Shown here: one piece after another, positions 1 to 3,054 of the stretch
Numbering within the stretch: the stretch's first letter is position 1
Layout: each line of letters begins with the position of its first letter
Source of the DNA: Candidatus Rifleibacteriota bacterium
Lineage (GTDB): Bacteria > Muiribacteriota > Ozemobacteria > Ozemobacterales > Ozemobacteraceae
Length of the DNA: 29,486 nt
Direction: 5' to 3'
Assembly: GCA_018818125.1 (NCBI GenBank)
Contig: JAHISQ010000093.1
Location: forward strand, 1-29,486
Made by a program: the position numbers and the translations under genes
Notes under the pieces: model-generated
Databases searched by the model: none
What the model was told of the DNA's origin: nothing
The model's input: the letters and a program-made list of their open reading frames with translations, nothing else

Positions 1-986
1 ATTTCATCCTGACGCGCAGTCTCTGGCAACAGCCTTGTGTCACCACGGCTCACCAACGATGTGCTTTCGACAAGGCGGTTTATTGGCTCAGCAATATGCC
101 ACGAGAGCACAGTCCCGGTAATCAGAGCCAACGCAAGTCCGATGAGGCCAAAAACAATGAAGTCACGCTGCATGGTTTGCCCGAGAATATTATACTCAGA
201 ATCTGGCAATGCAATTTCCAGTCGAATAGCTTCAGAAATACGACCTTTAAGCGCATCTTCCCTTACATAAAAATGCGAACGTCCGAGTATTTTCGTCTGC
301 CCTTGTCTGGCATCAGGGTCTTCGCTCAACCGGCCGGACTTGCGTTTTCCATAGATATCCATCTGGCTTGTAAGGATACGGTTGCCAGCATATAAAAGCG
401 AAAATTCAGCCCCGGTTAAGCGCTTGAGCTTATCAGCAAAATCCCTTGGCAGGCGTTGTGCAAAAATGACGTGTTGCGTCTGGTCGGTCTTTATCTTGGT
501 GATCATTGCCGCCGAAAAGATCCAGGGTTCATCACCTATTACATAAAGGTTTACATTCAGCTGCGAATGACACATTGCCGGTATGATTTTCGCGAGAGAT
601 TCTGATGGTGGTGTACCCTGGTCGAGCACTACTTTTTCGCGGTCTTTGACGACAGCGATATAATCGAGGCCTGATCTGATCAGCTCATATTGCATGAGCG
701 GGATCGTTGTTTCGGCCGCAAAGCCCATGCCAGCAAGCGTGTAAAAGTCAAAATCAGCAACTGTCTTTGCCCTGATCTTGAGTGAGTCGAGCTGATCCTC
801 AAGACTCTCTCTGAAAAGACTGGCAGCATAACCAAGGTTGCGGTTGAAATCCTGCCTGGCCATTCCCGATATGCGGTCAAGCGTAATGATCATCAATACC
901 GCAAGCGGCAAAACAAGAATAAGAACAAACAACAGAAGGATCTTGAACTTTAACTTGCGACTGCGAATAAATTCAATAAAATGCAC
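1..986 (-). CDS. Sensor histidine kinase, N-terminal sensing half. The gene continues beyond the window start, so only the 5' partial is present.
   Basis: The minus-strand frame is open from 986 to the window edge. It is absent from the ORF track because no stop falls inside the window. Translation begins (V)HFIEFIRSRKLKFKILLLFVLILVLPLAVLM. That gives TM1, a ~270-aa extracytoplasmic domain, and TM2 FGLIGLALALITGTVLSW. A HAMP-like segment HIAEPINRLVESTSLVSRGD follows. The candidate GTG start at 984-986 overlaps the stop (973-975) of the upstream gene. Confidence 0.65.
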   Translation of the reverse strand, partial: MHFIEFIRSRKLKFKILLLFVLILVLPLAVLMIITLDRISGMARQDFNRNLGYAASLFRESLEDQLDSLKIRAKTVADFDFYTLAGMGFAAETTIPLMQYELIRSGLDYIAVVKDREKVVLDQGTPPSESLAKIIPAMCHSQLNVNLYVIGDEPWIFSAAMITKIKTDQTQHVIFAQRLPRDFADKLKRLTGAEFSLLYAGNRILTSQMDIYGKRKSGRLSEDPDARQGQTKILGRSHFYVREDALKGRISEAIRLEIALPDSEYNILGQTMQRDFIVFGLIGLALALITGTVLSWHIAEPINRLVESTSLVSRGDTRLLPETARQDE

Positions 987-3054
987 GTTTTATCTCTACC
1001 TGCCCATTTTTTGCCCTCAGACCATTGATGAAAACCCGGCGAATATCGTTAAAAATCTTTGTAAATTCTATACCGGTCAGGTCATAAGAACCTTCTGATT
1101 TTTCGGGAAATTGCTCGTTTACTGCCAGTTTATAAATGTTGTCTGCTGCAAAGTTGCCGCCCCACGGCAGAATTTTAAGCTTGCCATCGCCAAGCACTTC
1201 TACGGAAAGTCCCGAAAAGGCCAACGAATCATCAGAGCGCATTGCTGCTGTAACAAGTTTTTCAAGAACTGCACCAGTTATCTCAGCAATTTTTACACCT
1301 TCAGATGTAGAAAAATCGGAAATTATCCGGGCTGGAGTGATTGAAGAAAGTGGCTCACGAGTTTTCAGTATTAGTCCTGATGGTATGAACGCAAAATCTG
1401 CGCCGCTTTCGAGGCGTATCACCTCGGCCAACAACCTTGAATATTCCGAATTGTTCGTGCCGTCGTGAACGACAGGAGAAGTCAGACTGGCTAGTTCAAA
1501 AGACAATGCCTGAATAAGCAAAGTTTCGTCTAGTTCCTGAGAATCGATAAATCTATTTTGTTCGTCTGGTGCAACAGTCGGCGATTTGCGCAAATATTTT
1601 TCCAGGCTTTCCCGGACAAGACCGCGCACTTGCGGGTTCTTTCCCTGGTTGAGTTCTGGCCAGTCATGCTGATTCGTATACATGAAGTCGTTGACCGATA
1701 CACTATAGGTTTTTCCGAATTCGAGAGGCTCATCGCCGACATAAATTTGCATTAGTCTGAATCCAGCGGGGTTAGAGCTGGAATATATGCAATTTATACC
1801 CGCCGCCTGCAAAAAACCGGTCTTGCCTGAAAGACCCTCTTCTACCAGATTCTCGATCTGCCAACCATAAAGATCGAGAGCTACCAGTGTGTTCTCAAAC
1901 GGTAGCATGTCATAGAGATGACGCAGCGTAACAGGTCCTTCTCCCGGCGCCGCTTTTACACCGCCAGAGTTGGTAAATGCAATTTGGGTTCCGGCGGTCT
2001 CTTTCATGCAGTCTGCAACCAGTTTCCCTGCCGTAGATTCTTCGTTGTATGAATATGTAAAAGTGCCAACATTTTGGGTTATTACTTCATCAAGCAGTCC
2101 ATCTATTTTTGCCTCAACTCTGCTGATTTCAGCAACCAGCTCAGCATCAGGGCTGATTCTTTCGGCATCTACAGTAAAAATGCGTTGGAATCCTCTCGCA
2201 ATATCCCATTTTCCGGTAGAGTAGGAAATTTTGACCATGCCTACGCCACCACCACGACTGGGAGCCGTCTGACAGACCAATGGTCTGCCGGTTATTACTG
2301 CGCCAGGACCGATAAGATCACCGATAATTATGTCGACATCAGGAAAAACTTCGCCAGGATTGTCGAGACTGCCGACTGCAGGGTGATGAGAAAGCAGAAC
2401 TACGATCTCTGCCCCTTCGGCCTTCAGCTGTGCTGCAGTTTTTTGAACCGATGTCTTGAAATCTATGATTTCAAGATTTACAATGTTGTCCTGACGCGTG
2501 TTGCGAGCCAGGTCTCCATTGCCAAGACCGATTATACCTATCTTTATGTCGCCCTTTGTAATGATTATTCCAGGTTTAAAGGTGTCTCCAACCGGAGATG
2601 TGACATCTCGATAGTTACACGCTAACATTGGTACAAGCCCGGACGAGATAAAGCCTTTCAGGCGGTCAAAACCAAACTCGAACTCAAGATTGCCAATGGT
2701 CATGGCATCGTAACCAGCTTTACCCATCAGTCGCAACGGCACCTCGCCCATCGTCAGCGAAGCTTCTGCTGTGCCGAAAAGGGCATCACCGGTGTCCAGC
2801 AGCAGGACTTCATCGCGCTTAAAATTAAAAGCGTTCGCGGTTTCTGCGATGAAACCCTTGATAAAAGCTAAACCACCGATCTGCTGATATTGTTGATCCT
2901 GGATTGCGCCAGAAAACGGCTTTATCTGTCCACGCAAGTTTGATGTGTAGAATATCACGAGATTACGACTAGGTATGCTCATATAATCTTTAAGCAGCAT
3001 CCCAGAGAGAATACCTATTAAAATCAGCGCTACAATGCTGAGGTTTTTGACCAC
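973..3054 (-). CDS. Membrane-anchored 5'-nucleotidase / calcineurin-like metallophosphatase family protein. It carries degenerate metal ligands and an extra ~240-aa C-terminal domain of unknown function.
   Basis: 693-aa ORF with a GTG start and GGAG about 11 nt upstream. N-terminal TM anchor IVALILIGILSGMLL. Motifs LLLDTGDALFG, TIGNLEFEFG, VVLLSHHP and DIIIGDLIGPG align to the UshA/5'-NT motifs GDxxD, GNHEFD, LSHxG and GGHSH. FTNSGGVKAAPGEGPVTLRHLYDMLPFENTLV matches the 5'-nucleotidase C-terminal substrate domain. Confidence 0.75.
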   Translation of the reverse strand: MVKNLSIVALILIGILSGMLLKDYMSIPSRNLVIFYTSNLRGQIKPFSGAIQDQQYQQIGGLAFIKGFIAETANAFNFKRDEVLLLDTGDALFGTAEASLTMGEVPLRLMGKAGYDAMTIGNLEFEFGFDRLKGFISSGLVPMLACNYRDVTSPVGDTFKPGIIITKGDIKIGIIGLGNGDLARNTRQDNIVNLEIIDFKTSVQKTAAQLKAEGAEIVVLLSHHPAVGSLDNPGEVFPDVDIIIGDLIGPGAVITGRPLVCQTAPSRGGGVGMVKISYSTGKWDIARGFQRIFTVDAERISPDAELVAEISRVEAKIDGLLDEVITQNVGTFTYSYNEESTAGKLVADCMKETAGTQIAFTNSGGVKAAPGEGPVTLRHLYDMLPFENTLVALDLYGWQIENLVEEGLSGKTGFLQAAGINCIYSSSNPAGFRLMQIYVGDEPLEFGKTYSVSVNDFMYTNQHDWPELNQGKNPQVRGLVRESLEKYLRKSPTVAPDEQNRFIDSQELDETLLIQALSFELASLTSPVVHDGTNNSEYSRLLAEVIRLESGADFAFIPSGLILKTREPLSSITPARIISDFSTSEGVKIAEITGAVLEKLVTAAMRSDDSLAFSGLSVEVLGDGKLKILPWGGNFAADNIYKLAVNEQFPEKSEGSYDLTGIEFTKIFNDIRRVFINGLRAKNGQVEIKRAFY

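Follow-up and report, generated by a model that had tools for sequence, protein, structure and literature searches.

A degenerate 5'-nucleotidase-like protein encoded directly upstream of a membrane diguanylate cyclase in Candidatus Riflebacteria, a candidate co-sensor

The DNA analyzed here, referred to as the window, covers positions 1 to 29,486 of contig JAHISQ010000093.1 from a Candidatus Rifleibacteriota bacterium (assembly GCA_018818125.1). At the left end of the window two overlapping genes lie on the minus strand. The first encodes a 693-amino-acid protein of the 5'-nucleotidase superfamily, recorded at NCBI as MBU1107223.1 under the name 'bifunctional metallophosphatase/5'-nucleotidase', and the second encodes the N-terminal part of a membrane protein, recorded as MBU1107222.1 (partial), whose orthologues are diguanylate cyclases. 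The reading that we favor, with modest confidence, is that the 693-amino-acid protein is a pseudoenzyme that would act as an accessory or co-sensor subunit of the cyclase; it would have lost its enzymatic activity, would contact the cyclase and would bind a ligand. The features of the two genes, with the evidence used to assign each of them, are as follows.

973..3054, minus strand: degenerate 5'-nucleotidase-like gene, 693 amino acids (open reading frame (ORF); Pfam 5_nucleotid_C; match to PDB 3ivd; AlphaFold2 (AF2) model; Foldseek)
3063..3066, minus strand: GGAG Shine-Dalgarno-like sequence, 8 nt 5' of the GTG start (read from the sequence)
2974..3054, minus strand: N-terminal hydrophobic helix, residues 1-27 (AF2 helix at residues 2-26; conserved hydrophobic stretch in the family alignment)
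2158..2973, minus strand: D1, degenerate calcineurin-like metallophosphoesterase domain, residues 28-299 (column counts; HMMER alignment to 3ivd)
1555..2157, minus strand: D2, 5'-nucleotidase C-terminal (substrate-binding) domain, residues 300-500 (Pfam 5_nucleotid_C; column counts)
976..1554, minus strand: D3, second, diverged copy of the 5'-nucleotidase C-terminal domain, residues 501-693 (hhalign; Pfam; AF2)
973..986, minus strand: 14-nt stop/start overlap of the nucleotidase-like gene and the cyclase gene (sequence; junction kept in orthologous loci)
1..986, minus strand: first 328 codons of the partner gene, which codes for a membrane diguanylate cyclase (83% identity to the orthologue at locus L002)
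879..941, minus strand: partner transmembrane (TM) helix 1, residues 16-36 (sequence; long AF2 helix at residues 12-68)
162..878, minus strand: partner periplasmic double-PDC (dCache_3-like) sensor domain, residues 37-275 (Foldseek; homology to the L083 domain)
3..161, minus strand: partner TM helix 2 (residues 276-296) and the first part of HAMP, residues 276-328 together (Pfam HAMP)

The ORF of the 693-amino-acid protein starts with GTG and ends with a TGA at 975-973. No sigma-70-like promoter of this gene was detected on the minus strand, the scan for promoters and terminators gave no signal above the shuffled expectation, and the Rfam scan of the window returned no RNA family.

Residues 29-499 of the 693-amino-acid protein align with both domains of the 5'-nucleotidases, with an E value of 2.6e-39 against E. 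coli c4898 (PDB 3ivd_A) by phmmer. The Thermus structure 2z1a was matched at 3e-32, and NadN and UshA (1ush/1ho5) at about 1e-17 to 6e-17. A preliminary description of the locus, made from the sequence alone, had aligned the protein to both domains of UshA, and this alignment was borne out, the UshA match itself standing at about 6e-17. The NCBIfam UshA model gave an E value of 3.3e-35, at a score far below the cut-off of the model, and Pfam 5_nucleotid_C was found at 1.8e-33 with its best stretch at residues 335-465. Pfam Metallophos gave no match in the protein, even when D1 was scanned by itself at E values of up to 10. The AF2 model (pLDDT 90.8, pTM 0.82) matched 3ivd by Foldseek with an E value of 5e-43 and a TMt of 0.82, and it fits closed-state CD73 better than open-state CD73. 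As modeled, the protein has the two-domain 5'-nucleotidase fold, which consists of the metallophosphoesterase sandwich and the C-terminal substrate-binding domain. It is a member of the 5'-nucleotidase superfamily by descent that fails the defining catalytic features of that family.

In terms of location, the 5'-nucleotidases from which the protein derives are extracytoplasmic. The family alignment holds no conserved A-x-A or other signal-peptidase motif after the N-terminal helix, and a linker of only about 7 residues separates the helix from the first strand of D1. Because residues 2-26 form a single hydrophobic helix near the fold with no conserved signal-peptidase motif after it, the helix probably serves as a signal anchor that is not cleaved, which would leave the remainder of the protein outside the cytoplasmic membrane.

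The catalytic center was compared by column counts in an alignment of 81 full-length family members with 15 canonical homologues that carry Pfam Metallophos. The three motifs of the window protein read YTSNLRG (residues 36-42), GNLEFE (121-126) and GDLIG (245-249), exactly as the preliminary description had read TSNLRG, GNLEFE and GDLIG by eye. Of the eight positions that bind metal or take part in catalysis, five have been substituted (NDxH by SNLR, GNH by GNL, and GGHSH by GDLIG), with N39 and R41 in place of Asp and His, L123 in place of the catalytic His, and D246, L247 and G249 in place of G-H-x-H. These losses are fixed in the family. The D-x-H pair is replaced by Asn in 81/81 members and by Arg in 80 of them, the GNH motif reads GN(M/L/F) with the His absent from all 81, the Asp of GNHEFD is Glu in every member, and GGHSH reads GD(L/M)I(G/S), again with Asp in 81/81. 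The replacement residues N39, R41 and D246 are themselves invariant, save for the single member that lacks the Arg.

The statement that most metal ligands are substituted therefore held overall, but it did not hold for the ligands of site 2, as D90 (of GD), N122 (of GN) and H223 (the motif-IV His) are retained and invariant in 81/81 family members. In the numbering of the literature, we take the lost positions to correspond to D41, H43, H117, H252 and Q/H254 of UshA, and the retained ones to D84, N116 and H217. As judged from the alignment, neither metal site 1 nor the catalytic His is left, and three of the four site-2 ligands remain beside a new invariant Asp. The protein lacks the dinuclear metal site and the catalytic His-Asp dyad of the 5'-nucleotidase family. 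The proposal that it is a pseudoenzyme withstood profile and family alignment, since almost none of the 81 members keeps the D-x-H pair, the GNH His or either His of GGHSH, and by its residues the protein is almost certainly not a metallophosphatase/5'-nucleotidase.

A different reading of the same residues is that the protein is still an enzyme that uses a single metal at site 2 (D90, N122, H223 and D246), with Arg41 replacing metal 1. The gene pair would then be an operon of an enzyme and a sensor, in which an extracytoplasmic phosphoester is hydrolyzed and either the product or the substrate is sensed by the dCache cyclase. We consider this quite unlikely, even though D90, N122 and H223 are invariant, the lost His has a new invariant acid beside it, the aromatic clamp F386/F457 and N362 of D2 are retained, D1 is the most conserved domain, and the AF2 model resembles the 5'-nucleotidases in their closed state. 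No member keeps the catalytic His of GNH(E/D), which has given way to Leu, Met or Phe, the site-1 ligands (D and H) are lost together with both His of GGHSH, and D1 fails the Metallophos model even at an E value of 10. In calcineurin-like metallophosphoesterases, mutation of the GNH His or of the site-1 ligands cuts the activity by orders of magnitude.

The substrate pocket in D2 is altered in part. The base-stacking aromatics F386 and F457 are retained in 79/81 family members and N362 is invariant, while the GGIR motif reads GGVK, with Lys for Arg in 79/81, and N-x-x-D-W stands in place of the GGDG loop. In UshA and CD73 the Asp of the GGDG loop binds the ribose. Because this ribose-binding loop is lost and the Arg of GGIR has become Lys, a nucleotide ligand is not simply to be assumed, and nucleotides as the ligand of this protein are only a guess. 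The conservation of the aromatic clamp and of the remodeled metal cleft (Arg41, Asp90, Asn122, His223 and Asp246) suggests that a small ligand of some kind may still be bound. Tyr336, which takes the place of the phosphate-binding Arg, was considered as a shared marker of the degenerate members and was rejected, as Tyr is found at this position in 25/124 canonical sequences.

In summary, the protein shares with the active enzymes UshA, CD73 and c4898 (PDB 1ush, 4h2i and 3ivd) the two-domain fold, the GD and GN motifs, H223, the aromatic clamp and the NxGG motif. In contrast to those enzymes, it has replacements at D-x-H, at the catalytic His, at the His of GGHSH and in the GGDG loop, and it has in addition a duplicated C-domain, a probable N-terminal anchor and a coupled signaling gene.

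The duplicated C-domain is D3. The preliminary description had noted an extra C-terminal domain of about 240 amino acids; the domain is present, and its length is instead about 190 amino acids (residues 501-693). The profiles of D2 and D3 match each other in hhalign with a probability of 97.5% and an E value of 5e-12 over 153 columns, Pfam 5_nucleotid_C finds D3 at a sub-threshold E value of 5e-4, and in the AF2 model the secondary-structure elements of D3 follow in the same order as those of D2. By these matches D3 is an internal duplicate of 5_nucleotid_C that has diverged and is without the substrate-pocket motifs.

About 85 homologues of the 693-amino-acid protein were found, with 40-100% identity and lengths of 680-727 amino acids, none of which has a Metallophos match, and the named sources are Candidatus Riflebacteria, Rifleibacterium or Ozemobacteraceae. 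When 1.84 billion cluster representatives were searched exhaustively with a profile, only four full-length representatives, along with fragments, were returned. The three-domain degenerate architecture appears confined to the Riflebacteria clade, because the next profile hits cover profile positions 1-515 only and most of them carry the canonical DHDNHHHH string. The dN/dS ratio (nonsynonymous to synonymous substitution rates) against the closest orthologues is about 0.05, at saturated dS, and the mean pairwise identity is 0.61 for D1, the most conserved domain, and 0.44 for D3. The low dN/dS and the high conservation of D1 argue for a maintained protein with a changed job rather than for a decaying gene.

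Metagenome-assembled genomes (MAGs) labeled Erysipelotrichia, Methylomirabilis and Avigastranaerophilus (loci L008, L015, L021 and L037) carry a gene pair of the Riflebacteria type at 57-70% identity, and these are probably mis-binned contigs or mislabeled MAGs. Two further degenerate two-domain 5'-nucleotidase-like proteins were seen elsewhere, P0149 (L084, 521-6419) with the ligand string GNDNRQKE and P0161 (L085, 4478-6273) with the ligand string IQDNRQYS. The P0149 gene overlaps the gene of a 1449-amino-acid HEAT-repeat protein by 20 nt. Because P0149 and P0161 are degenerate as well, catalysis has apparently been lost several times in the 5'-nucleotidase fold.

The partner gene starts with GTG at 986-984, and its ORF runs off the start of the window, where the source contig also ends, inside HAMP. 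The preliminary description had called the product a double-TM histidine kinase with a periplasmic sensor and a HAMP region. The topology was correct: a basic N-terminus (RSRKLKFK) precedes TM1, and a periplasmic domain of about 240 amino acids, TM2 and the beginning of HAMP follow. The kinase identity was not upheld. The window ends at codon 328 within HAMP and so holds no kinase core, and HisKA and HATPase_c are absent both from the part of the protein encoded in the window and from its full-length orthologues. The 328 codons match the N-terminus of the 687-amino-acid L002 orthologue with 83% identity and no gaps. That orthologue gave Pfam matches to HAMP (7.5e-8, weak in the truncated window protein), GAF_2 (8e-21) and GGDEF (1e-45), and the orthologous downstream genes encode proteins of about 690 amino acids with HAMP, GAF and GGDEF. 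Because of this gapless identity to a HAMP-GAF-GGDEF protein, the partner is identified as a membrane diguanylate cyclase and not as a histidine kinase.

Since the window partner is truncated, the catalytic residues of GGDEF were read from the orthologues only. GGEE (with Met at the fifth position), the D-I-D of the DxD motif, K-x-x-N-D and the Arg before GG are invariant in 31 cyclase orthologues, and by these residues the catalytic site of the orthologues is intact. The RxxD inhibitory site, five residues before GG, is absent; the sequence there reads R-T-G-I-D, with the Arg displaced by one position. A second diguanylate cyclase, a 526-amino-acid GAF-GGDEF protein in which Pfam detects no sensor, TM or HAMP, is encoded at 13839-15416 on the minus strand of the window, and the cytoplasmic half of the partner may be paralogous to it.

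Pfam matches to the periplasmic domain of the partner were sub-threshold (CHASE4 at 6e-4 and sCache_3_3 at 0.07). Searches for homologues with the sensor region returned 4 partial proteins only, and the AF2 model, built on this 4-sequence alignment, is for that reason of moderate confidence (pLDDT 73.6). The best Foldseek matches of the model were the sensor domains of PctA, Mlp24, DctB, KinD and LuxQ, and on the strength of the model the domain probably has the double-PDC (dCache) fold.

In the window, the TGA of the nucleotidase-like gene (975-973) and the GTG of the cyclase gene (986-984) lie within a 14-nt overlap, in agreement with the overlap of stop and start that had been described. 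The linkage of the two genes was followed in 43 species-representative genomes that carry the family, of which 38 have contigs that extend past the gene and could thus be tested. In all 38 of these Riflebacteria species loci a cyclase orthologue lies directly downstream on the same strand, and in 29 of them the GTG start and the 14-nt overlap are identical. At most of the remaining junctions the genes are 1-8 nt apart or overlap by up to 35 nt, and one locus (L034) has an apparent gap of 392 nt that is probably due to a frameshift. Conservation of the gene pair had been named beforehand as the test on which the co-sensor idea would stand or fall, and the idea survived it. The 14-nt overlap suggests translational coupling.

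Adjacency alone is weak evidence for a functional link, because the UvrD-like gene upstream of the pair is always present as well and is equally conserved in position, and synteny is conserved more widely in the phylum. It could be argued from this that the two genes are neighbors merely through the conserved gene order of a narrow phylum, and that the 693-amino-acid protein does something else, in the envelope or as a structural protein. These cases were not told apart by a mirror-tree test. The partial correlation of the nucleotidase-like protein with the periplasmic domain of the cyclase, controlling for UvrD or for the cytoplasmic domains, was significant, but so was the control that paired UvrD with the periplasmic domain. 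In contrast, the junctions themselves differ, as the 14-nt overlap is kept in 29/38 loci across 41-100% protein identity while about 100 nt of intergenic DNA separate uvrD from the nucleotidase-like gene. The absence of any functional link is very unlikely in our estimation, and it is further opposed by a pairing that recurs with a homologous sensor, a different output and an unrelated neighborhood.

The contents of the neighborhood were also noted. The 475-amino-acid amidohydrolase encoded in the window at 8717-10144 on the plus strand has an L002 orthologue that matches dihydropyrimidinase above the cut-off, and some loci (L002, 13588-17821; L004, 13264-18133) have an EamA transporter, two generic amidohydrolases and a HAD-IG 5'-nucleotidase 3' of the cyclase gene. 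This lends the neighborhood a flavor of nucleotide catabolism that L003, the most distant locus, does not share.

The recurrent pairing was found in a metagenome (Logan SRR14699983; locus L083). The L083 protein, P0136, is a degenerate 5'-nucleotidase-like protein of 513 amino acids with two domains, and its ligand string reads G-K-D-N-L-H. It shares 31% identity with the window protein (E 5e-65), and 5_nucleotid_C is its sole Pfam match. Genes of the P0136 type lie 4-20 nt upstream of a gene for a dCache_3-HAMP-PAS-HisKA-HATPase_c kinase in three independent assemblies (L083, L166 and L167), and the neighborhood differs from that in Riflebacteria, with CcmE upstream. The sensor of the L083 kinase matches Pfam dCache_3 (PF14827) at 5.5e-13 and is 26% identical to the sensor of the Riflebacteria cyclase over 336 amino acids (BLASTP, E 2e-19). 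When a hidden Markov model of the periplasmic region only, built from 32 cyclase orthologues, was run against 2254 ORFs, the L083 kinase was its sole match (E 1.6e-10).

The L083 pair is therefore like the window pair in that a degenerate nucleotidase-like protein is encoded immediately 5' of a homologous dCache_3-HAMP module, and the same catalytic positions are lost. Unlike the window protein, the L083 protein has two domains and no D3, and its substitutions are G/K and not N/R. The output of its partner is PAS-HisKA-HATPase_c, whereas that of the Riflebacteria partner is GAF-GGDEF. Because homologous sensors are joined to different outputs in the two lineages, the pseudo-nucleotidase appears to travel with the sensor domain and not with the output, as one would expect of two extracytoplasmic parts that function together.

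The mechanism that would follow can be outlined. A pseudoenzyme derived from a periplasmic 5'-nucleotidase would be held by its N-terminal helix in the cytoplasmic membrane, with the rest of the protein facing the periplasm, and translational coupling would ensure that it is made with the cyclase in a fixed proportion. The cyclase would be laid out as TM, dCache-like periplasmic domain, TM, HAMP, GAF and GGDEF, and the pseudo-nucleotidase would bind to the dCache domain. A small extracytoplasmic ligand would bind to the retained aromatic clamp or to the cleft of the degenerate metal site and cause an open-to-closed rotation of the domains, as in the active 5'-nucleotidases. The conformational change would then pass through TM2 and HAMP to GGDEF, and cyclic di-GMP (c-di-GMP) synthesis would go up or down; the physical contact, the binding of the ligand and the sign of the regulation are all parts of this proposal.

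The protein might also act on the cyclase with no ligand at all, as a periplasmic repressor, activator, scaffold or stabilizer that answers the state of the envelope or another protein. YfiR acting on YfiN is a model for such an accessory. The evidence from gene coupling applies equally to this case, the pocket has changed at its contacts to phosphate and ribose, D3 has lost the pocket motifs and might mediate contacts between proteins, and the linker of about 7 residues would hold the protein at the membrane beside the cyclase. An accessory of this kind is nevertheless unlikely in our view. The pocket aromatics and Asn are conserved in 79-81 of 81 members even though catalysis is gone, which is most easily explained by continued binding of a ligand, and the L083 relative is still paired with its sensor although it has no D3.

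Several observations weigh against the proposal that the pseudo-nucleotidase is an accessory or co-sensor of the cyclase. The dCache domains usually bind ligands themselves, and the cyclase may need no co-sensor. The invariant site-2 ligands D90, N122 and H223, with the new invariant D246 beside the lost His, leave room for a single-metal site at which the protein may have some activity. The upstream UvrD-like gene shares the conserved synteny, and the mirror-tree test did not set the nucleotidase-sensor pair apart from its controls. Outside the family the pairing was seen in one lineage and was absent from 114 other loci; no sensor domain lay nearby in any of the 80 loci from a metagenome scan with the L083 protein or in any of L049-L082. 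In neighbor-joining (NJ) trees, an exclusive clade of the L083 protein and the Riflebacteria family was recovered in 34/100 bootstraps and the nearest neighbors of the L083 protein were canonical enzymes, and the trees are compatible with a shared degenerate ancestor as well as with separate origins. P0149 and P0161 show that degenerate 5'-nucleotidase-like proteins also occur in unrelated gene contexts. A more specific version of the co-sensor proposal, in which the pseudo-nucleotidase would be an extracytoplasmic receptor for a nucleoside, a nucleotide or another aromatic-type signal and would form with dCache_3 a portable two-protein cassette placed on different outputs, is put forward only tentatively and is somewhat doubtful.

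Among known systems, PruR-DcpA would be functionally the closest precedent for the window pair. PruR, found with DcpA in Agrobacterium tumefaciens and other Proteobacteria, is a secreted pterin-binding protein with a degenerate sulfite oxidase (SUOX) fold in which the Mo-binding Cys is lost; it is encoded upstream of DcpA in a bicistronic operon and controls the output of this cyclase/phosphodiesterase, which has two TM helices and a periplasmic loop (PMC11194511). In both systems a gene for a degenerate enzyme fold lies directly 5' of the gene for a GGDEF protein with two TM helices and a periplasmic domain. Unlike PruR, which is small and soluble with a cleaved signal and the SUOX fold, the window protein has the 5'-nucleotidase fold, 693 amino acids and three domains and is probably anchored. 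Unlike DcpA (GGDEF-EAL), the partner has no EAL but carries GAF, HAMP and a dCache-like domain. PruR binds a small molecule and controls the c-di-GMP output, whereas in the window pair a ligand and a contact between the two proteins are proposed.

Two further systems share the general arrangement. In Vibrio, the periplasmic binding protein LuxP signals through the double-PDC domain of LuxQ, a sensor with two TM helices (PDB 2hj9), and the model of the partner sensor matches the LuxQ periplasmic domain by Foldseek. NspS of Vibrio cholerae is a periplasmic binding protein that likewise signals through a periplasmic double-PDC domain, here that of MbaA, a c-di-GMP enzyme with two TM helices (PMC8079147, PMC8967002). 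The window partner is like MbaA in being a c-di-GMP enzyme. In contrast to LuxP and NspS, which have solute-binding-protein folds, the window protein is a degenerate enzyme, and LuxQ is a kinase/phosphatase. As in such pairs of an accessory with a two-TM sensor, the Riflebacteria genes are adjacent, co-oriented and conserved (38/38 loci), and the two TM helices of the sensor flank a periplasmic domain. In the open-access literature, no paper was found on a co-sensor with the 5'-nucleotidase fold or on a pseudo-5'-nucleotidase sensor.

Two other genes of the window were also of note. An 826-amino-acid protein encoded at 21933-24410 on the minus strand has the Major Vault Protein (MVP) shoulder domain (2e-28), a Vault_3 repeat (2.7e-7) and SPFH/Band 7, and it is an unusual, bacterial MVP-like protein. 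A 698-amino-acid protein encoded at 24666-26759 on the minus strand is a fusion of a queuine tRNA-ribosyltransferase (TGT, 1.7e-142) with a C-terminal Methyltransf_30 domain (MnmC-type), which is an uncommon architecture.

In terms of annotation, the 693-amino-acid protein should not be filed as a nucleotidase, because the defining catalytic features fail. The name carried by MBU1107223.1 is probably an over-annotation, the catalytic residues being lost, and metabolic reconstructions of Riflebacteria that count the protein as a nucleotidase would be wrong. Pseudoenzymes that have been recruited to sense for c-di-GMP enzymes in the periplasm are few, and the fold of this protein, as a co-sensor, would be the second enzyme fold among them, the SUOX fold of PruR being the first. 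The occurrence of one accessory-plus-sensor cassette on either a cyclase or a kinase would support the exchange of input modules as two-protein units, and the window offers a defined, clonable pair with which environmental sensing in an uncultured phylum may be probed. If the more specific receptor version of the proposal is true, the 5'-nucleotidase fold would act as a receptor for the first time, and bacteria would have a route by which extracellular nucleotide-like cues are coupled to c-di-GMP.

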